The translations under genes and the position numbers were made by a program. Below, one piece after another: positions 6,484 through 43,791 of a stretch of 45,172 nucleotides of DNA. This DNA comes from Bacteroidaceae bacterium. GTDB taxonomy: Bacteria > Bacteroidota > Bacteroidia > Bacteroidales > Bacteroidaceae. Positions within the stretch are counted from its first letter, which is position 1, and each line of letters begins with the position of its first letter. The notes under the pieces were generated by a model. That model did no database searches. It had not been told where the DNA came from and worked only from the letters and a program-made list of their open reading frames with translations. The DNA lies in NCBI GenBank assembly GCA_045117095.1, contig JBGUMY010000294.1:1-45172 (forward strand), given 5' to 3'.

Positions 6484-6656
6484 TCAGCAATCTTACGTTA
6501 TTATTTATATATCAGTTTTTATGTTAGTAGTTTTTTCATAGTTTAGCATTAATTTTTGAAGTTACAATTTTTAGGTTTTTAGTTATTGGAAAATTCATTC
6601 TATTTTTTCGGATTGCGAGAATTAGAAAAATGAAAGTAATGGTTAGTAGATTATTT

Positions 6657-6685
6657 GGGCTTGCAGCGGCGAGCCCATTTTTTTT
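6657..6685 (+). terminator. Rho-independent terminator
   Basis: GGGCTTGC-AGCG-GCGAGCCC followed by A and T8. Confidence 0.7.
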
Positions 6686-6716
6686 GTGCCTACCATTTTC
6701 CTGACCTCAGGAAAAT

Positions 6717-6746
6717 GGTAAACCCACGACCGCAAAACCCTTTATA
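6717..6746 (+). promoter_or_regulatory. GGTAAAC-N18 motif (weak downstream half, TTATA)
   Basis: GTAAAC at 6718-6723 with the CCACGACC spacer signature. Preceded by the hairpin CCATTTTCC-N8-GGAAAATGG. Confidence 0.4.
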
Positions 6747-6806
6747 GTAAAAAGGGTGCTACCCTTTATAGTAAAAAGGGGGTACCCCGTTTATAGTATA
6801 AACCCT
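6737..6806 (+). repeat. Three 24-nt-spaced hairpin/iteron units (ACCCTTT-ATAGTAA-AAAGGGT x2, plus the variant TTTATAGTATAAAC)
   Basis: Units at 6737-6757, 6761-6781 and 6784-6806. The same triplet recurs at 36663-36730. Confidence 0.8.
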
Positions 6807-16445: not shown

Positions 16446-19400
16446 ATGGCAGATTACAGACTTTCACAATCAGGCGACGAGGTGCAGAACATCCTCGACA
16501 ACGCCGCATTGCGTGCTCAGCTGACCGCAGAGACCGAACGCGCCACAGATGCGGAAACCCATTTGCAACAGAACATCAATGCCGAGGCGCAAACACGCGA
16601 GCAGGCCGACGGAACTTTGCAACAGCACATCACCGCACTGGCTGACCAGATCGCGCAGACACTCAACAACTACTATCTGAAGAGTGAGACGATGAGCGCA
16701 CAGGAGATTCAGACGCTCGTCTCGCAGACCATCGCAGCCTACTACACCAAGTTGCAGGTGGACGCGCTGATCCACGACTTCATCACGGCAAGCGTTGACA
16801 ATCTCGTGAACTACTACTTGAAGAGCGAGACCTTCACCAAGGACGAGGTGAACCAGCTCATCGCTGCCGTGAAGCAGTTCCGCTATCAGAGTGTACCCAC
16901 CCTGCCGACGGCATCTGCCGACACGATGGGCATCATATTCCTCGTACCCAGTACCAATCCCAAGACCAAGAACACCAAGGACGAGTTCATCACCACGTCA
17001 TCGACCAACGAGCAGGGTGTGACCGTCTATGACTGGGAACAGATAGGCACAACCACGGTAGACCTGTCGGGCTACTCAACCACCGAGCAGATGAACGCTG
17101 CCATCGCCAGTGCCATCAGCACGGCACTCGCCTCCTACTATACCAAGAGTGAGACCATGAGCACGGCACAGGTCAATGCCGCCATCGAGCAGGCCGTCAA
17201 CACGGCTCTTGCCAACTACTACACCAAAGCGCAGACTGACGCAGCCATCAGCACAGCACTGAATACGGCACTCGCGTCGTACTACACCAAGGCTGAGACC
17301 AACGGGCTGCTGGACACCATCCGACAGAGCATCACAGCCGAAACTGGTGCCCGCACCGAGGCCGATGCAGCCCTGCGCCAGCTAATCAACCAGGTAAGTG
17401 CCTCGCTGGTGAACTACTACCTGAAGACAGAGACCTATTCAAAGTCTGAGGTGCAGCAGCTCATCGATGCCGTGAAGCAGTTCCAGTATCTGGTGGTTCC
17501 GACACTGCCCGCCACACCGGGCCCAGACACGATGGGCATCATATTCCTCGTACCAAGCACCAACCCCAAGACGCAAAACGTAAAAGACGAGTATATCACC
17601 ATTCTCGACGGCTCTACCTACAAGTGGGAGCATATCGGTGACACGAACATCGACCTCTCTGGCTATTCAACAACTGCCGAGATGAATGCCGCCATTGCCA
17701 GCGCACTGACCGCCTACTACACTAAGGAGCAGGTGGACGGGATGGTGGCTACTATCAACGCTGCTATCGCGCAGAAGGCGGCACAGAGCGACCTGACCGC
17801 CGAGGTTTCACGCGCTCAGCAGGCGGAGCAGGCCAACGCGGATGCCATCGCCGCGCTCCAGGACATCGTTGCTGACATTGAGACCATTGCCGAGGGCTAT
17901 GTGCGCGTGGCTGGCTCGTCTTCTCCGGCACTCAGTTATAAGTCATACAAGTACCATGAGCAGGGCGGCTTCGGACGTGAGAGCGTGTTCTCGCTGTTCT
18001 ATCCTTGCTTGGTAGGCACACCGCTGACGGGTGCAGGCACGGAGGGCAAGGTGCTGCATGTGCTTCAGAAGTTCGGTGCAAGGACGATTGACGGTACTCC
18101 GAAGTGGCTCGACATCTACGGCACGCCTCATGCCATCGACGGCTCAGAGGGTGACGTGTTGATTGTGAACATCGAGCCGTTCTACAGCATCAACGGAAAG
18201 CACGTCATTGAGGGCACAGAGTATGACGTGTTCCTCATGTCGCGCACACCGTTCACCTGGCAGGGCATCGAGGCAGAGCACATGGAGAAGTTCGGCTGGA
18301 GTCCTGACTACTGCGTGAGCCATACGGACACCGACAACGTGGTGCGTATGCACTCTGTCTATAACCCTGCGTGGAACGGCTCATACCAAGCACCTCAAGG
18401 CGTGGCTGGCAAGTATGTCTATTCTGTTGACCCAGAGACGGGCGACATCGTGGAGACCTACGATGCCAACGAGACGCTGCTGGGCGGTGCAGGTGGCTTG
18501 CACTCTACCGACATCAACCTGCCCGACGGCGAGCAGCGTGCCATGAACATGAACGCCGACCCGACGAAGACCGTGCCCTGGATGAACCAGACGGCAGAGG
18601 GTAGCAACCGTCTGATGTCGCTGATACTGGCAGAGGGTGGTACGTTCGATGCGCACAACGCAACTCGCATGGGTAGCGGCTTCTCTTCCAACGACCCAGC
18701 CACAGCCGCAGGCGACTGGGATCAGGCGGGCAGCGGTGCAAAGAACGGACTGCGCGTGATGGATAAGAACGGCGCATGGAAGTACTACGGATTTAACGGC
18801 AACGTCCGCTTCCTGAAGGGTGCGACAACGGGTACGGTGAATGCCGCTGAGGTCATCAACTCATGGAGAAATCCGTGGCACATTATGGAGGCACATCGTG
18901 CGATGTCCTATGCCATCGAGAACGACGTGCATGAGTTGGAGTGGTTTGTCTTCGAGGGCAACAAGTACAAGTACCGCAGCGTGCAAGACTTCAACGGTCC
19001 GAGTCACGGCGAGATGACCTGCGTGGTGTGGAAGCTCATGGCAACACAGGCTGGTGCCAACGCTATCGATCCGTCAGACAACGCCACAAGCATAGCCGGC
19101 AACCGCGTGGAGATACTCGTCAGCACGGCACTCGTTCACGGCATGACTACGCAGGTGTCGCCATCGTGGTGGACTTCAGGACTGTTGTTTACGGAAGATG
19201 AGAACGGACAGTATGAGTGCTTTATCGAGCGCGACCAGGCAGAGGTGGTGAAGAGCATTGCCGCCGACAACTACGATCCCGCAACGCCACGAGACTTTGA
19301 GACCATCTACGACCACGTGCTGACCGTGCAGAAAGGTGAAGGCTATGCCAAGAACTATCTCAACGGTGCGCTGATGCTTCCTGACAGCAATGCCAACAAG

Positions 19401-19610
19401 ACCGGCGCAGGCTTGCATACCTATGTGGGCAAGTATAACTGGTTCACGGGTGGTAATGCCAGTGCTGGGAAAAAGTCGGTCCGTGGCTTCCGGCGCGGCT
19501 TCACCGCTAACCTCCCGTACCTGTCTCCGTTGGCGTTGGTCGCGTACCTTTCGCCCTCGAACTCGCACTCGAGCATCGGCTTCGGCACCTGTTGTCGCAT
19601 AGCGGAATAG
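16446..19610 (+). CDS. DGR target protein: fibre-like receptor-binding protein with C-terminal variable region
   Basis: 1054 aa. N-terminal repeated YYTK/NYYLK stalk modules. The last ~45 codons (VRGFRRGFTANLPYLSPLALVAYLSPSNSHSSIGFGTCC) are the VR copy of the downstream TR. Confidence 0.85.
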   Translation: MADYRLSQSGDEVQNILDNAALRAQLTAETERATDAETHLQQNINAEAQTREQADGTLQQHITALADQIAQTLNNYYLKSETMSAQEIQTLVSQTIAAYYTKLQVDALIHDFITASVDNLVNYYLKSETFTKDEVNQLIAAVKQFRYQSVPTLPTASADTMGIIFLVPSTNPKTKNTKDEFITTSSTNEQGVTVYDWEQIGTTTVDLSGYSTTEQMNAAIASAISTALASYYTKSETMSTAQVNAAIEQAVNTALANYYTKAQTDAAISTALNTALASYYTKAETNGLLDTIRQSITAETGARTEADAALRQLINQVSASLVNYYLKTETYSKSEVQQLIDAVKQFQYLVVPTLPATPGPDTMGIIFLVPSTNPKTQNVKDEYITILDGSTYKWEHIGDTNIDLSGYSTTAEMNAAIASALTAYYTKEQVDGMVATINAAIAQKAAQSDLTAEVSRAQQAEQANADAIAALQDIVADIETIAEGYVRVAGSSSPALSYKSYKYHEQGGFGRESVFSLFYPCLVGTPLTGAGTEGKVLHVLQKFGARTIDGTPKWLDIYGTPHAIDGSEGDVLIVNIEPFYSINGKHVIEGTEYDVFLMSRTPFTWQGIEAEHMEKFGWSPDYCVSHTDTDNVVRMHSVYNPAWNGSYQAPQGVAGKYVYSVDPETGDIVETYDANETLLGGAGGLHSTDINLPDGEQRAMNMNADPTKTVPWMNQTAEGSNRLMSLILAEGGTFDAHNATRMGSGFSSNDPATAAGDWDQAGSGAKNGLRVMDKNGAWKYYGFNGNVRFLKGATTGTVNAAEVINSWRNPWHIMEAHRAMSYAIENDVHELEWFVFEGNKYKYRSVQDFNGPSHGEMTCVVWKLMATQAGANAIDPSDNATSIAGNRVEILVSTALVHGMTTQVSPSWWTSGLLFTEDENGQYECFIERDQAEVVKSIAADNYDPATPRDFETIYDHVLTVQKGEGYAKNYLNGALMLPDSNANKTGAGLHTYVGKYNWFTGGNASAGKKSVRGFRRGFTANLPYLSPLALVAYLSPSNSHSSIGFGTCCRIAE
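16806..16995 (+). repeat. Internal module duplication, copy 1 (NYYLKSETFTKDEVNQLIAAVKQFRYQ...DTMGIIFLVPSTNPKT)
   Basis: Recurs 603 nt (201 codons) downstream. Shares the perfect stretch GACACGATGGGCATCATATTCCTCGTACC. Confidence 0.8.
17409..17598 (+). repeat. Internal module duplication, copy 2
   Basis: NYYLKTETYSKSEVQQLIDAVKQFQYL...DTMGIIFLVPSTNPKT, in frame with copy 1. Confidence 0.8.
19475..19610 (+). repeat. DGR variable region (VR)
   Basis: 19475-19594 aligns without gaps to 19940-20059 (offset 465). There are 21 mismatches and every one lies at a TR adenine. Gapped similarity continues to the stop codon. Confidence 0.9.
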
Positions 19611-19749
19611 AAAACGTAAACCCGCCCGAACGAAGTGAGGGCCGCTGAGCGAAAGCGAAGCCGTAAACTGCGCGGCTTGGCGCGCCCTCCGAGCGATAGC
19701 GAAGGCACCCATACCGCCGCAAGGCGGTCGGCTCGAAAATTCAAAAATA

Positions 19750-19787
19750 GAGGTCATCTCCAGCGATGGGGATGGCCTCGTTTTTTT
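19750..19787 (+). terminator. Rho-independent terminator after the DGR target gene
   Basis: GAGGTCATC-N12-GATGGCCTC (one G-U pair), then G and T7. Confidence 0.65.
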
Positions 19788-19790
19788 CTG

Positions 19791-19820
19791 GGTAAACCCC
19801 AGACGGCATTTCGCCCAAAT
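19791..19820 (+). promoter_or_regulatory. GGTAAAC-N18-CAAAT bipartite motif upstream of the TR and RT
   Basis: GTAAAC at 19792-19797, 18 nt, CAAAT at 19816-19820. The TR starts about 120 nt downstream. Confidence 0.5.
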
Positions 19821-19939
19821 AGTGTGGAGATGTGGTGCGACATCGTTGAAACAGAAATCCATGCCACCGACCAAATAGCACAAGGGAATCGGAGTACCCG
19901 TCAGGTGGTGAGGTTGAAATAAGGCGGCTGCACTGTACG

Positions 19940-20075
19940 GTCGGTCCGTGGCTTCCGGCGCGGCAACAACGCTAACAACACGAACCTGTCTCCGTTGACG
20001 ATGAACGCGAACAATTCGCCCTCGAACACGAACTCGAACATCGGCTTCGGCAACTGAAACGCAGTAACGAAATAC
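19940..20075 (+). repeat. DGR template repeat (TR)
   Basis: Invariant copy rich in AAC codons (AACAAC, AACACGAAC, AACAAT...). It contains an in-phase TGA, so it is not a coding duplicate. Confidence 0.9.
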
Positions 20076-20267
20076 ATAAGCCCTCGATTGCTTAGACCTG
20101 AGCATGAAGAGACAGGTGCAGAGCCTCGCTGACGCTGGAGAGCGAAACAACGCAGGAAAAGGTGCTAAGACCACCAGCCGACCGCGCAAGAATGAGCGAA
20201 GGAGAGGGTAGGCTGCAAGGCGTTCGGAAACCTTGCTATCGGCGCAACAGGTCAAGACAAAAAAATT

Positions 20268-21584
20268 ATGACATCAACATGGAACAACATCACCACTGGC
20301 CTTCACGCTGCCGTATATGACAGCTACACGGCCAAGAGCTCACGTCAACGCGCCAAGCGTGAGGTGGTGGAGGTCATGGCAGATGTGGACGGATTCTGCC
20401 AGCGCAAGCGGCATGAACTGGAGTGTGACACCTACCGCATAGGCGACTATCGTCACTTCCGCCTAAAAGATAAGAAGAAGGAGCGCGACATCTCGGTATT
20501 GCCCTACGAAGACCGATGTGTGCAGAACGCCATCAAGGATGCCATAGAGCCGCTATTGCTCCGTCAGATGACCGACGACATGATGGGCGGTCTGCCTAAT
20601 TGCGGGGTACTGGCAAGCGACAAGCGGCACCAGGTGGTGGCACGAGTGCGGGTGCTCATGAACGACCGCTCGCTGAAGTATTGCTTGCAAGGCGACATCA
20701 AAAAGTTCTACGACCATGTGGATAATGTCATCAGTATGCAGCTCATTGAGCGGCAGGTAAAAGACAAGCGCACAAGGGCTGTCATACGTCAGCACCTCTT
20801 CAACCAGAAGCGGCTCGCCATCGGTGATCCATTCAGCCACCTTATCGCCAATCTCAATATGTCGGTCATCATTCGCAAGGCAAAGGAGCTGTACGGCGAT
20901 AGCATCAAGGTAGTCAATTTTGCCGACGACTTCATCGCCTTCAGCAAGGACAAAGAGACGCTGAATGCCCTGCGACGCGATATGCAGCAATGGGCAAAGA
21001 CGATGCGGTTACACTACAAGCCGATGTATGTGCGTCCCGTTGACGGTCAGGACATCATCTTCTGCGGCTACAAGTTCGGGCGTGGCTACGTTCACCTGAC
21101 CCAGCACACGAAGAAACGCTACGTCAAGGCCCGCCACAAGAAGCGCAGTATAGGCTCCTATCAAGGCATCATCGGAGTGGCAGACACGAAGCATCTGAAA
21201 CTAAAAATTCAAATAAACGACAATAAAGGAACTATGAGCGAGAAAATCAGACGACCCTTTGCAGGGCGACCCATGAAAATGGAAACAATGGAAGGTATCA
21301 ACCATACCATTGTGGACTTCCAGAAACGCAGCAGCAACCAAAAGGACTGCGACAGTTACTACCACATTCAGGCACTTGCCGACGGGCTGGGATTGATAGT
21401 GTATAGCACCGGCGCACAGAAGATATGCAAGTACCTGGACACCAAGAGCCGCACGGACATCCCACTGCGCGACATGAAGATAGTGCATGACTGGAGCGGC
21501 TTCTACTATGACGGCACCGTATATACCGATGCCGAGGAAGAAGAAATGATTCGCAAACAATTTAACATACCCAAATCAGCATGA
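20268..21584 (+). CDS. DGR reverse transcriptase with an additional 116-aa C-terminal module
   Basis: RT motifs are present: ERDISVLPYEDRCVQ, GDIKKFYDHVD, IGDPFSHLIANL, VVNFADDFIAFS. It lies immediately downstream of the TR. The RT-sized core ends near aa 322. Confidence 0.85.
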   Translation: MTSTWNNITTGLHAAVYDSYTAKSSRQRAKREVVEVMADVDGFCQRKRHELECDTYRIGDYRHFRLKDKKKERDISVLPYEDRCVQNAIKDAIEPLLLRQMTDDMMGGLPNCGVLASDKRHQVVARVRVLMNDRSLKYCLQGDIKKFYDHVDNVISMQLIERQVKDKRTRAVIRQHLFNQKRLAIGDPFSHLIANLNMSVIIRKAKELYGDSIKVVNFADDFIAFSKDKETLNALRRDMQQWAKTMRLHYKPMYVRPVDGQDIIFCGYKFGRGYVHLTQHTKKRYVKARHKKRSIGSYQGIIGVADTKHLKLKIQINDNKGTMSEKIRRPFAGRPMKMETMEGINHTIVDFQKRSSNQKDCDSYYHIQALADGLGLIVYSTGAQKICKYLDTKSRTDIPLRDMKIVHDWSGFYYDGTVYTDAEEEEMIRKQFNIPKSA

Positions 21585-35011: not shown

Positions 35012-35280
35012 TGGACAGACTGCTGAGATCGGAGATTGTGGCAGAGGTCAGGAAGTCGATGACTGAGATTCTGGAAGTGGCCAATGAGCGTTGGCTGACT
35101 GGCGACGAGCTGTGCGAGCAGTTCCAGATGTTCTCGAAAGGTTGGTTGAAGGCTTATGGCGACCGCCTGCCACGTCAACGTGCGGAAGTGATGGACGATG
35201 GTATAAAGGTTAGTCGCTGGGCATATCCACAACACCGCATCGCCAGGATGATACAAGAAGGAACCATCAAGGAACTCTAA
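35011..35280 (+). CDS. Excisionase/HTH-like small DNA-binding protein
   Basis: WLTGDELCEQFQMFSKGWLKAYGDRLP fits the excisionase-type HTH pattern. Its start overlaps the upstream stop. Confidence 0.4.
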   Translation: MDRLLRSEIVAEVRKSMTEILEVANERWLTGDELCEQFQMFSKGWLKAYGDRLPRQRAEVMDDGIKVSRWAYPQHRIARMIQEGTIKEL

Positions 35281-35556
35281 ATAGGTCAACAGAAGTAATG
35301 TGTGAAACATAGGCTTTTTTAATCACAGATTAACCAAACCCCAGCCCGCCGTGATGGTTCGCTGGTTTTCAGAAGACCCAATATTACAGTTAATTCATAT
35401 ATCAAGTTTTTAAGTTAGACACAAATTTGACTATTTGGCACCGAGCGCGGTGACCTCCCATTCGGATTAATAATGAAGTTTTACTATTATTCCCTGCCAT
35501 CCGTGAGGCCCGCAGGTTTTTATGAAGGAACTACAATAATCATCAGGATAAGATTT

Positions 35557-35633
35557 GGAAGGTAAAGACCCGTAAAAGGTGCAACGGGCAAGTAACAGTA
35601 GGATGAGCGTGGGTTCGATTCCCTCACCTTCCA
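35557..35633 (+). ncRNA. tRNA-like module 1 (acceptor stem plus T arm, non-canonical body)
   Basis: GGAAGGT pairs perfectly with ACCTTCC. T arm is GTGGG-TTCGATT-CCCTC (one mismatch), discriminator A. The interior offers only the CCCGT-N10-ACGGG hairpin, with no D arm or anticodon arm. Confidence 0.55.
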
Positions 35634-36074
35634 CAAACGCCGAGGGACGTATAGAGATAATCCCGGTAAGTAGGCAAAATCATTTGTTGAGATCACTGAG
35701 GAGGTACAGCAGCCAGGGCGCAAGCCTGTACGTGTATCGAATCGAAACGGCATCGAAAGAGACCGACAAGCTGAAGGAGTGGAAAGAGACGGTACTCAAT
35801 CCGTAAGTACAGCCGGAGGCGACAAGGTAAGTTCCGAACCCCGCAGCGGCCACGAGTTGGCCCCGAAATGCAAAGAATAAGGCGGGAAGGTAGTAGTGTA
35901 AGGCCGAGGGAATGGTGGGAGAGAATGAAAGCCGAATGAGCCGCAGGAATGCGGATATTAAACAGAACGAAACAGATGGAGCGAGGTTCGCTATATGTCA
36001 TCAGCGAATAACCAAGTATCTTAGGCAGGGTTTGGCACCTGCATGAGCCTCGAACTTGATAAATATATATGGTA
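35634..36074 (+). ncRNA. Candidate structured RNA core between the two tRNA-like modules (class unknown)
   Basis: No credible ORF. There are multiple GC helices with GNRA-type caps: 35704-35731 (GCAA), 35941-35954 (GGAA), 35980-35992, 35848-35862 and 36025-36042. Confidence 0.45.
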
Positions 36075-36144
36075 TGCCGTGAAGCTAAGTTGGTAAAGCG
36101 TCGCAATATTGCGGAGGTCGGTGGTTCGAGTCCACCCACGGAAA
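36075..36144 (+). ncRNA. tRNA-like module 2: full cloverleaf with a 4-nt loop in place of the anticodon loop
   Basis: Acceptor 6 of 7 bp, D arm GCTA-AGTTGGTA-AAGC, stem TCGCA/TGCGG closing ATAT, variable AGGTC, T arm GGTGG-TTCGAGT-CCACC, discriminator A. Confidence 0.6.
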
Positions 36145-36161
36145 CATTTCACTTTAATAAG

Positions 36162-36512
36162 ATGACACAAGATCAATTATATTTTTGGCTCCAATATGAC
36201 GGTATGGTTAGAGCAATCGATCTGCCGATGGAGTACAAAGTAAAAGACAGGCGCATCTGCTGTGTGAATAAGAATTGCACAAACGCGCTTAGAGATAAAT
36301 GCTTGTTTTGGCAGAGATTTCTGAATTATGGTAAAATAATAGGATCAGAAGCGATGCGATGGGCATTCACTAACACTAAAATCTATCAAAAAGGAATAGA
36401 GAGAGAAAAGTGGGATAAAAACTACGGCAAACCAAACTATTTCTCAGCTGCATTCTTTTTCATGCCTGAGCAAAAAGGTATAAAATGTGAATATTACAAA
36501 AGTCAAATCTAA
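36162..36512 (+). CDS. Hypothetical protein (AT-rich, Cys/Lys-rich)
   Basis: Start moved to ATG 36162, because the listed 36069 start runs through the tRNA-like module. Confidence 0.5.
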   Translation: MTQDQLYFWLQYDGMVRAIDLPMEYKVKDRRICCVNKNCTNALRDKCLFWQRFLNYGKIIGSEAMRWAFTNTKIYQKGIEREKWDKNYGKPNYFSAAFFFMPEQKGIKCEYYKSQI

Positions 36513-42174: not shown

Positions 42175-42318
42175 ATGGTAACAATCAAGAGAGACCGCAA
42201 GGCGAAGGACTGCTGGCTGATCACCACGACCGACAAGGAAGGCTATCACCGCCAGCTGCCCATCACCTTCGACGATATGCGCGAACTGGTAAGACTTTGG
42301 ATAGATGAAGTGATATGA
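42175..42318 (+). CDS. Small hypothetical protein (47 aa) coupled to the HNH gene by an ATGA overlap
   Basis: Hand translation gives MVTIKRDRKAKDCWLITTTDKEGYHRQLPITFDDMRELVRLWIDEVI. Confidence 0.35.
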   Translation: MVTIKRDRKAKDCWLITTTDKEGYHRQLPITFDDMRELVRLWIDEVI

Positions 42319-42932
42319 ATAAAAAACAATCAAACTGGAAGCGAAACCCAAAGCACATCTATTATGTCAGTCTGCTTAACTCGAAGGATTGGCAAGGTGT
42401 CAACGGACTGAGGGCACGGACGCTGCGGGCGCACCCGCTCTGCCAACTCTGCGAGAAGCAAGGCTTGGTGGTGAGTGCCGTTGACGTGCATCACCTAAAA
42501 CCCGTCGAGGGTGTTGGCGGTCGATACCAGGAGGGCGACGTGCTGCCCGACTCGGTGAAGGAGGCCATGCGTGAGCGATGTTTCGACGAAAAGAATGTCA
42601 TTGCGCTTTGCATCCCGTGCCACATCAGGATTCATAAGGAAATGAACAGCCATCGCGGACAGATGCAAGACCTGCCGAACCTGCCGCATGAGGAGCAACC
42701 GAAACAGGAGCCGACGGCACTCAGCGACTTCTTCACTCGCATGACGGGCGAACAGTACCACGAGCGACCGAAACCGAAGAAGGGCATCCGACGCACACCG
42801 CTGGGATGGATGACCAAGGAGGAGTTTAAGCAGAAGTTGGAAGACAACCAAAAGAAATGGATAGACAATATTGAGCATGGATTTACAAACACTGAGGGAA
42901 CGTCAGGCGTGGACGCTGACACAAAAGATTGA
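42315..42932 (+). CDS. HNH endonuclease
   Basis: CQLCEKQG...VDVHHLKPVEG...NVIALCIPCHIRIHK. Confidence 0.8.
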   Translation: MNKKQSNWKRNPKHIYYVSLLNSKDWQGVNGLRARTLRAHPLCQLCEKQGLVVSAVDVHHLKPVEGVGGRYQEGDVLPDSVKEAMRERCFDEKNVIALCIPCHIRIHKEMNSHRGQMQDLPNLPHEEQPKQEPTALSDFFTRMTGEQYHERPKPKKGIRRTPLGWMTKEEFKQKLEDNQKKWIDNIEHGFTNTEGTSGVDADTKD

Positions 42933-43791
42933 CCACTCGCTCGGAGTGATAGACCAGTTCGCCAGCCACTTCGACGGGCAGGTGTACGTGTCATTCAGTG
43001 GTGGCAAGGATTCGGTGGCGATGCTGAGTCTCGTCGAAGTGATCATCCCGCGAGTCAAGTGCATGTTCGTGATGACCGGCTGCGAGTCGCCAAGCGTCTG
43101 CCGATTCATCCGGCAACTGAAAGCCGAGGGCAAGGACATCGACATCGTGCGGCCCCGCAAGACCTTGAAGCAAGTCTTTGCCGAGTATGGATTCCCGCTC
43201 GTCAGTAAGAAGGTGAGCCACCAGATACAATGTGTCCGACGCAACCCCTATTGCCAATCGAGCCGCGAACTGCTCCGACGCGACAACAAGTATTGCATCC
43301 CCGAAAGATGGATGTACCTACTCAACGAACCTTACGAGGTGAGTGCCCGCTGCTGCCAATGGCTGAAGCATCTGCCAGCCTACGACTACGGCAAGCAGAC
43401 AGGCCGGCACCCGTACATCGGACTGTTGGCACATGAGAGTTATCAGCGCACGCTCGGATATATCCAGCAAGGCGGTTGCAACTTCTTCGGTTCTGAAGGT
43501 AAGCAACACCCGCGCTCCCTGCCCCTGGCGATATGGACTGATGAAGACGTGTGGGCATACATCCGAGACCGAGGGCTGACACTGCCCGACATCTATGAGA
43601 AGGGCGCAAGGCGAACAGGTTGCATGGGTTGTGGCTTCGGTGCCCACATCAACAGCGACGGCATCGACACCCTCAAGCGACTCTGGCCAAAGTGGTACGA
43701 CCTCATTATGAGTTATGAGAACAACGGCATCCGATATGGTGATGCACTCAACAAGGCGATAGAAAGGGCAAATGTTAAAAGTACCAAATAA
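42871..43791 (+). CDS. PP-loop ATPase of the PAPS-reductase family with C-terminal Cys cluster
   Basis: YVSFSGGKDSVAM (SGGxDS PP-loop) and RRTGCMGCGFG near the C-terminus. The start may be 42871 or 42877. Confidence 0.7.
   Translation: MSMDLQTLRERQAWTLTQKIDHSLGVIDQFASHFDGQVYVSFSGGKDSVAMLSLVEVIIPRVKCMFVMTGCESPSVCRFIRQLKAEGKDIDIVRPRKTLKQVFAEYGFPLVSKKVSHQIQCVRRNPYCQSSRELLRRDNKYCIPERWMYLLNEPYEVSARCCQWLKHLPAYDYGKQTGRHPYIGLLAHESYQRTLGYIQQGGCNFFGSEGKQHPRSLPLAIWTDEDVWAYIRDRGLTLPDIYEKGARRTGCMGCGFGAHINSDGIDTLKRLWPKWYDLIMSYENNGIRYGDALNKAIERANVKSTK

Follow-up and report, generated by a model that had tools for sequence, protein, structure and literature searches.

The 45,172-nt contig JBGUMY010000294.1 from a Bacteroidaceae bacterium, analysed over its full length and referred to here as the window, contains an 881-base gap at positions 35281-36161 that is its largest gene-free stretch. 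On the + strand, the gap holds two hairpins followed by U-runs, a tRNA-like module, a 441-nt core (63.5% A+G, 50% GC) and a second tRNA-like module, which stops 17 nt short of the ATG at 36162 (Table 1). This layout, the lack of any credible open reading frame (ORF) between 35280 and 36162, and the idea that the tRNA-like modules flank a large structured phage RNA of unassigned class had all been put forward in an earlier reading of the same DNA (hereafter the original prediction). On re-reading, the layout proved correct and the + strand carries short frames only; the RNA itself is substantiated by 98 homologues, covariation, a G·U bias, the lack of a coding signature and negative Rfam scans. 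We conclude with high confidence that the gap encodes a conserved structured noncoding RNA (ncRNA).

To gather the RNA family, we scanned viral, genome and metagenome collections for patterns of conserved core words and then with an nhmmer profile. It comprises 122 metagenomic or viral loci, each with one copy of the RNA, and 98 distinct cores of 374-537 nt. Relatives were thereby obtained by one of the two routes that the original prediction had named, the profile search; by the other, distant blastn of the gap DNA against 50,697 phage records, no match was returned, nor did the exact T-arm pattern of the first module have a match in viral contigs. The 5′ and central parts of the core (~35634-35960) are conserved, and at least three alternative versions of the 3′ domain exist within the family. 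Mean pairwise identity in the central domain is 80% among 58 diverse members, compared to 54-58% nucleotide identity (~45% amino-acid identity) in the flanking genes of the same loci. We show that the ~440-nt + strand core is under strong purifying selection, acting on sequence blocks as well as on base pairing.

The selection does not have the signature of a protein: variable columns are distributed over the three codon phases as 59/56/58, with no third-position excess; just 6 of 238 gap runs are divisible by three; and the 3-periodic, synonymous-type substitution without covariation by which the prediction could have been overturned was not seen. Cells with G·U exceed cells with A·C four- to five-fold (50 to 12 and 97 to 21), which places the RNA on the + strand.

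Pairing was counted on MAFFT alignments with curated structures, in which variable-length arms are under-counted. For the central domain, we compared a 58-sequence alignment of 35742-35938 (A2) with 500 shuffles under a curated 24-pair structure: 91.9% of the cells are paired (82.7±0.5% in shuffles); 121 cells carry a double change (40.5±4.5 in shuffles, with 0/500 reaching the observed count); the covariation score is 0.254 vs. 0.115; and moving the partners by 1-3 columns leaves 24-44% of the cells paired. For the whole RNA, an alignment of 25 sequences that have the window's architecture (A4) was evaluated with a 65-pair model; 93.2% of the cells are paired, against 24-34% in the slid controls, 17 pairs are changed on both sides (12.3±1.3 in shuffles, none of 500 reaching 17), and the double-change cells number 87 vs. 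28. Compensatory base-pair changes thus support at least seven helices. Compensatory change above controls, together with the lack of a coding signature, is what is generally expected of a structured ncRNA.

The helices with compensatory changes are distributed from the 5′ hairpin domain to the V3 arm. In the 5′ hairpin domain, the P2 pair 35647/35661 changes from A-U to U-A in 8 of 25 sequences (11 of 77 in a wider set), and inner pairs change from G-C/C-G to A-U/U-A. The H3 helix 35703-08/35733-38 has two-sided changes in six of its six pairs (GGUACA/UGUAUC, CUGUAA/UUACAG, GUGCAA/UUGCAC), and in other subfamilies the whole arm is swapped for hairpins of other lengths. The original prediction had drawn this arm as GTACAG..GGC-GCAA-GCC..CTGTAC; its inner GNRA hairpin is kept, with GCAA, GAAA or GUAA loops, whereas the outer GTACAG/CTGTAC pairing is refuted by covariation, which supports GGUACA/UGUAUC instead. 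The closing helix of the central domain, CGGC/GCCG, is 99.6% paired and varies solely by G-C to G·U. Inside it, ACC 35762-64/GGU 35826-28 shows one double change from C-G to U-A and a UA/GC extension, and the hairpin ACGG 35789-92/CCGU 35801-04 becomes CAGC/GCUG or CGAC/GUCG in another subfamily. The purine-rich junctions of the domain (GGAGUGGAAAGAG, AAGUACA, GGUAAGUUCCGAA and GGUAGUAGUGUAAGGCCGAGGGAA) are highly conserved; the junction GGAAAGAG opposite AAGUACA resembles, by its sequence, a loop-E/sarcin-ricin motif and is a candidate for one, and GCUG/CAGC and UGGAA/UUCCG are candidate pairings of a central three-way junction.

In the outer helix of the V3 arm, 13 of 58 sequences show a change from U-A to C-G, and 17 of 58 one from C-G to U-A; the inner helix, predicted as GGCC-N7-GGCC at 35848-62, is strongly supported by covariation, with two-sided changes in five of the six counted pairs and up to four pair types in each; and the loop of the inner helix is conserved (CGAGU in the window, CGNGW across the family). 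At the V4 position, where the prediction of CCGCA-GGAA-TGCGG at 35941-54 also held up, dozens of different hairpin sequences occupy one position: most of the 64 distinct sequences fold as a hairpin there (mean z = -2.65 vs. shuffles, 84% below -1), with variants such as CCAC/GUGG, CCAGC/GCUGG, CUGCG/CGCAG and GUUGCGA/UCGCAAC, among others. In the 3′ domain, the complementarity of P14 and P15 is kept in 25 sequences almost without variation, GCAGG-N8-CCTGC (36025-42) being near-invariant, and other family members have unrelated forms of this domain. The predicted hairpin AGCGA-GGT-TCGCT (35980-92) is disfavoured, as its 5′ strand varies uncompensated and UUCGCU 35987-92 is complementary to AGCGAA 36003-08.

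A hairpin unit of the form GGUUGC...GCAAC followed by AUAC occurs twice, in the V3 and V4 arms, in several loci (L021, L024, L063 and others; L numbers are our handles for loci), and a similar hairpin with AUAC lies just past the anticodon position of the second tRNA-like module in L001, L002 and L116; it looks like a reusable or mobile unit.

The tRNA-like modules keep their ends and lose their middles. Module 1 is present as predicted, in the form of an acceptor/T-arm module in which the D and anticodon arms are absent, so that it forms no complete cloverleaf; it had no tRNA-model match in the Rfam scans of the window. It was found in 84 of the 98 distinct sequences with a length of 72-130 nt, most members share the acceptor GGAAGGU/ACCUUCC, the T stems covary, and the T-loop sequence is UUCGAAU or UUCGAGU. 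In ~13 relatives (including L005, L006 and L008) a canonical tRNA-Ser(GCU) occupies this position, and other relatives have "introns" or odd loops. A weak match to the transfer-messenger RNA (tmRNA) model RF00023 at 35557-35636 covers the two model ends only (12.8 bits vs. the 47-bit threshold); as no tag frame and no ARAGORN tmRNA call accompany it, we rejected a tmRNA.

Module 2 is tRNA-like as claimed, matching the Rfam tRNA model RF00005 at 44.3 bits (gathering threshold 29). It has 4 nt in place of the 7-nt anticodon loop, which does not make a functional decoder, and ARAGORN called no tRNA or tmRNA anywhere in the window. The module was found in 90 of the 98 distinct sequences, with a body of 61-210 nt. 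Across the family its acceptor UGCCGUG/CACGGCA and T loop are conserved and its T stems covary, and the anticodons called for it span many amino acids or have an impossible length of 2 or 4 nt; a canonical tRNA, Thr-UGU, is found among the flanking modules of L007.

The spacing of these elements is conserved as well. Almost all of the first 80 sequences collected have T-loop motifs on both sides of the anchor, at about -270 and +240, and the first conserved core block begins exactly 3 nt past the discriminator of module 1 in 85 of 95 sequences. The spacer reads CAA in 72 sequences and is CCA in another 6. Directly 5′ of module 2, a conserved AUAUAUGGU(A/G) (36060-36074 in the window) is present in most loci, whichever form the 3′ domain takes, and could serve either as a leader for RNase P or as the terminal element of the RNA. 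An ATG at 36069 in this region opens a frame that runs through module 2 into the next gene; because the length of module 2 varies, the frame is most likely coincidental.

Upstream of module 1, both of the predicted hairpin plus T-run elements exist, and they recur before the RNA in many relatives with stems that, by eye, covary beneath a GNRA loop. The shared motif consists of a 5-6 bp stem, a 3×3 internal loop (often CCG/UUC), two pairs with a GNRA loop, and a U-run. Hairpin 2 is the sole exact match in the window to the pattern "stem - 3×3 internal loop - GNRA hairpin - U-run" (0.06 matches in shuffles); hairpin 1 is kept in L001 with a compensating change in its inner pairs, and other loci have related copies with different stems. 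The strict pattern matched in 44 of 92 upstream regions, with the copy mostly ~140-180 nt before the core start and tens of nt before module 1. These elements may be regulated terminators or protein-binding sites. One to three copies precede the RNA locus, and copies sometimes also follow it (L003, L004 and L013 among others). Several members repeat 12 nt of the hairpin 3′ half (GCGAGGUUCGCU) at the P14 5′ strand of the core, in the place equivalent to 35981-35992 of the window; the window's own hairpins share just 8 nt (GGUUCGCU) with this region. We dropped the notion that P14 might imitate the terminator hairpin for antitermination, its support being too weak.

Two further observations concern the same upstream region. 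Between the two U-run hairpins, positions 35439-35466 hold a conserved small hairpin (CACCG-AGCG-CGGUG) with A..UCCCAUUC behind it, which L001 also has, with a changed loop. Moreover, an AT-rich intergenic region of 270 nt in the late-gene block (6484-6755) contains a 42-nt, 83% match to the AT-rich segment 35379-35418, and the two may share a promoter-like element.

Table 1. Elements of the gene-free gap and of the core RNA, in window coordinates
Feature	Position	Strand	Description
Hairpin + U-run 1	35341..35369	+	CCAGC/CCG/CC-GUGA-UGG/UUC/GCUGG, then UUUU; intrinsic-terminator-like
Hairpin + U-run 2	35493..35521	+	CCUGC/CAU/CC-GUGA-GG/CCC/GCAGG, then UUUUU; ~36 nt upstream of module 1
tRNA-like module 1	35557..35633	+	Acceptor GGAAGGU/ACCUUCC; T arm with loop UUCGAUU; discriminator A; one hairpin replaces the D and anticodon arms
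Core structured RNA	35634..36074	+	441 nt; 98 distinct homologues, covariation, no Rfam family
5′ hairpin domain	35639..35667	+	P1 35639-41/35665-67; P2 GGGA 35644-47/UCCC 35661-64; inner stem 35650-52/35657-59
H3 arm	35697..35744	+	Outer stem UGA/UCG; GGUACA 35703-08/UGUAUC 35733-38; GNRA hairpin GGGC-GCAA-GCCU 35716-27
Central domain	35748..35934	+	Closed by CGGC 35748-51/GCCG 35931-34
V3 arm	35839..35886	+	Outer CCC(C)GC 35839-44/GCGGG 35882-86; inner GGCCA 35848-52/UGGCC 35858-62
V4 hairpin	35941..35954	+	CCGCA-GGAA-UGCGG; hairpin kept at the same position among 64 distinct sequences
3′ domain, window form	35985..36042	+	P14 GG-UUCGCU 35985-92/AGCGAA-..-CC 36003-13; P15 GCAGG 36025-29/CCUGC 36038-42
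tRNA-like module 2	36075..36144	+	Acceptor UGCCGUG/CACGGAA; normal D and T arms; anticodon arm with 5-bp stem and 4-nt loop

The RNA has a fixed place in the phage genome. Every family locus with sufficient flanking sequence shows the same early-region order: integrase and repressor, encoded on the other strand, then a pair of small rightward genes, the RNA locus, and replication genes. The second small rightward gene precedes the RNA in all 83 loci that were eligible; its 89-aa product has no Pfam or PHROGs match and, by appearance, looks Xis/HTH-like. Downstream of the RNA are genes for an SSB (58 of 61 loci), an AAA ATPase (57/61) and a primase (43/61), and the immediate downstream gene is variable: of the 61 loci, 2 have p116 in this position and 16 have p58. 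The RNA therefore lies between lysogeny-control genes (integrase, repressor and the small Xis-like gene) and replication genes (SSB, AAA ATPase and primase). As far as sampled, the family is restricted to one temperate Bacteroidales/Prevotellaceae phage lineage: its two genome-bin matches are Prevotellaceae and Bacteroidales metagenome-assembled genomes, and among isolated phages the nearest are Bacteroides phages F1, F2 and F4, with a portal identity of merely 28.6%. Judging by their IMG sample numbers, the family loci would seem to come from rumen metagenomes.

Rfam 15 was scanned at the gathering threshold with the window, at E≤10 with 35200-36250 and at E≤5 with 20 diverse homologues. The scans, which the original prediction had called for, gave no core match to ROOL, GOLLD, tmRNA or other families; they returned tRNA matches only, plus sub-threshold noise, and our literature searches found no description of the core RNA family. 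The core is an RNA family that is absent from Rfam 15 and is a member of neither ROOL nor GOLLD. The comparison with these two RNAs had also been drawn in the original prediction; the prophage setting beside tRNAs is indeed shared, whereas homology was not detected.

Large, intricately folded bacterial and phage RNAs without known function are rare, with OLE, GOLLD, ROOL and raiA as the main examples. Like ROOL, the RNA described here is a large, elaborately folded ncRNA without known function that is encoded by phages or prophages beside tRNAs and has no associated protein gene. It differs from ROOL in size (~440 nt vs. an average of 581 nt), in its Bacteroidales/Prevotellaceae hosts and in having a tRNA or tRNA-like element on each side at fixed spacing; by inspection, unaligned, the ROOL env-120 is AT-rich and dissimilar to the purine-rich, 50% GC core. 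With GOLLD it shares the phage or prophage setting near tRNAs, the division into a conserved and a variable part, and the physical linkage to tRNAs. However, it has no GOLLD model match; many GOLLD RNAs exceed 800 nt, against 441 nt here; and GOLLD is conserved at its 3′ part and variable at its 5′ part, whereas the present RNA keeps its 5′ and central parts and exchanges its 3′ domain. According to the cryo-EM paper, the tRNAs of GOLLD lie inside a linker (PMC12286853). Here, they lie at both ends.

Other known systems offer partial parallels. The P4 CI and P1/P7 C4 RNAs are RNase P-processed phage immunity RNAs of ~80 nt that act by antisense pairing to nearby sites. The core resembles them as a phage RNA of the lysogeny-control region that, on our proposal, would be cut from a longer early transcript by the tRNA-processing machinery, but no such family appeared in the Rfam scans and no convincing target complementarity was found for the core. 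The use of tRNA shapes as punctuation, where RNase P and RNase Z signals set the ends of adjacent RNAs, is known from mitochondria, from MALAT1-mascRNA and from viral tRNA-like elements; these systems are eukaryotic or organellar, whereas in the phage conservation patterns point to it. A template RNA of a diversity-generating retroelement (DGR) was rejected as well: the DGR of the window is 15 kb away, and the gap has no similarity to its template or variable repeats. The UG27 ncRNA arrays of Bacteroides prophages are described as repeated hairpin units that occur together with two accessory ORFs and a reverse transcriptase (bioRxiv 10.64898/2026.09.22.753630), and on that description they were judged different from the core.

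What the flanking modules have retained suggests how the RNA is produced. The minihelix of acceptor stem and T arm is the part of a tRNA that RNase P and RNase Z recognise. The retention of the acceptor and T arms, the decay of the anticodon domains and the fixed 3-nt spacing fit a role of the tRNA shapes as cleavage signals. We propose that the core RNA would be made within the rightward early transcript, and that the flanking elements would act as punctuation, for which they keep the acceptor stem and T arm alone. Processing of the 3′ side of module 1 by RNase Z or an equivalent would create the core 5′ end near 35634-35637; an RNase P cut at the 5′ end of module 2 would create the core 3′ end at 36074; and a stable RNA of defined length would be released. 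To judge from the conserved features of the modules, release of the core by RNase P and RNase Z is probable. Taken as a whole, an uncatalogued folded ncRNA that is punctuated by tRNA-like elements and released from between them is the explanation that we favour, with moderate confidence.

What the released RNA does is a matter on which we can offer a more doubtful proposal: by analogy with ROOL and GOLLD, it might act in trans as a compact scaffold, made of RNA alone or with a protein or ligand attached, in early lytic development. We also raise, tentatively, the prospect that the family makes up an independent class of large "ornate" phage RNA, the third of its kind and the first in phages of Bacteroidota, which uses degenerate tRNAs purely as processing handles and has a new biochemical role in early infection. 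Possible roles for such a class are RNA-only assembly, an activity directed at tRNA or the ribosome, and RNA-based counter-defence.

Several observations weigh against this account or limit its reach. First, the single-sequence fold of the 441-nt core is not stabler than dinucleotide shuffles (minimum free energy -110.5 kcal/mol vs. -114.5±5.8; z = +0.69), so that a hairpin density beyond chance is not supported; the description of the gap as hairpin-dense finds no backing in this sense, although the layout read from it was correct. Second, P7, P14, P15 and, within the window's subfamily, V4 are invariant and offer no covariation proof, and the long-range helices are ambiguous: the possible helices 35680-87/35971-78 and 35687-96/36013-21, which came from different runs, cross each other, and a plain column-pair scan was noisy. 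Third, the core of L001, a related viral contig from a gene-based search, has 3 differences in ~400 nt from that of the window, while both tRNA-like modules and the neighbour genes are far more diverged (the downstream protein is 86% identical); the near-identity of the two cores may in part come from recent recombination besides selection. Fourth, the window's own modules are imperfect, with a U-U mismatch in the T stem of module 1 and a G·A in the acceptor of module 2, which makes their cleavage efficiency uncertain. Fifth, the Bacteroidetes -7 box (TAnnTTTG) was not found upstream, being present in 4% of 92 upstream regions, and a terminator-like hairpin sits just upstream of module 1; transcription consequently needs either read-through from an early promoter or an unrecognised promoter. 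Finally, the scaffold function in trans is drawn from analogy with ROOL and GOLLD and from nothing else.

Among the alternatives, the one that fares best takes the functional unit to be the whole tRNA-core-tRNA, or gives the modules a role of their own as decoys or substitutes against host anticodon nucleases or as covalently linked cargo, as proposed for the tRNAs of GOLLD. The anticodon regions are hypervariable and not just lost, with inserts of up to ~70-150 nt and, right behind the anticodon position, repeatedly found hairpins such as CUUGUAGGAUUCAUCCUACAUAC, some modules are still the canonical Ser-GCU and Thr-UGU tRNAs noted above, and the linker position of tRNAs in GOLLD is a precedent (PMC12286853). 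Nevertheless, anticodons that are inconsistent, or impossible as in the 4-nt loops, argue against decoding or a specific-decoy role, and module 1 of the window has dispensed with both D and anticodon arms, leaving the acceptor/T-arm minihelix as the conserved part. We regard this alternative as unlikely.

We consider it quite unlikely that the RNA is instead a cis-acting regulator of the early operon, for example a riboswitch-like leader or an RNA for processive antitermination, which would act with the upstream terminator-like hairpins on the expression of the replication genes downstream. Its location between the control region and the replication module would suit such a regulator, as would the one to three preceding terminator-like hairpins with conserved loops and the 12-nt identity that several members (8 nt in the window) share between the hairpin 3′ half and the P14 5′ strand. 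But a leader or riboswitch is expected to stay with the gene that it controls, and here the next gene is not conserved; a tRNA-like element separates the RNA from that gene, and its cleavage would detach the RNA; and the RNA lies downstream of the terminators, not upstream. The known cis antitermination RNAs, to our knowledge exemplified by HK022 put and the EAR element, are also far smaller than 440 nt with modular arms.

It is improbable that the core is a highly divergent ROOL or GOLLD beyond the reach of the Rfam models. The setting in prophages beside tRNAs is the same, and ROOL, likewise found in prophages next to tRNAs, was first found in cow rumen data (Weinberg et al. 2017, PMC5737381; PMC12286853); against this, no marginal match appeared even at the permissive E-values used for the gap and the 20 homologues, the sizes disagree, and env-120 is dissimilar by eye, unaligned. 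Still less probable is a decaying tRNA island with a functionless spacer, or a DNA element such as an origin or attachment site: the two flanking tRNAs of the window are degenerate and replication genes lie just downstream, yet the "spacer" is the most conserved local sequence, its compensatory changes and strand-specific G·U excess are not expected from selection at the DNA level, and no iterons or repeats were found inside the gap. A protein-coding origin of the conservation, through a 148-aa antisense frame at 35693-36139 or a 75-aa GTG frame, has next to no probability: antisense stop-free stretches (median 125 aa) do occur in 71 of 77 homologues, but long stretches of this kind are expected opposite a 63.5%-purine strand, the indels and codon phases given above lack any coding pattern, and the antisense frame passes through module 2.

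The family of folded RNAs described here matters for several reasons. Large RNAs of this kind have repeatedly uncovered new RNA biology, most recently RNA-only nanocages, and the present family adds a different host phylum and ~100 natural variants with modular, swappable arms. The ends of the core are apparently set precisely by the tRNA-like elements, which makes it a compact and well-delimited target for structure determination. It provides an independent case in which to ask why phages pair large RNAs with tRNAs, and its flanks offer a natural example of tRNA genes that appear to have been reduced to processing signals in a bacterial virus.

Two other features of the window deserve mention. 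A complete DGR, not linked to the core RNA, occupies 16446-21584: its variable repeat (19475-19591) encodes the C-terminus of a 1054-aa ORF (16446-19610), the template repeat lies at 19940-20056 and the reverse transcriptase (Pfam RVT_1) at 20268-21584, and 18 of 18 template-to-variable differences fall at template adenines, as in a classical DGR. An HNH endonuclease-like ORF (42315-42932) overlaps an ORF with a PAPS-reductase domain (42871-43791), and the pair (42315-43791) lies just upstream of the terminase region, which wraps to 79-1146.

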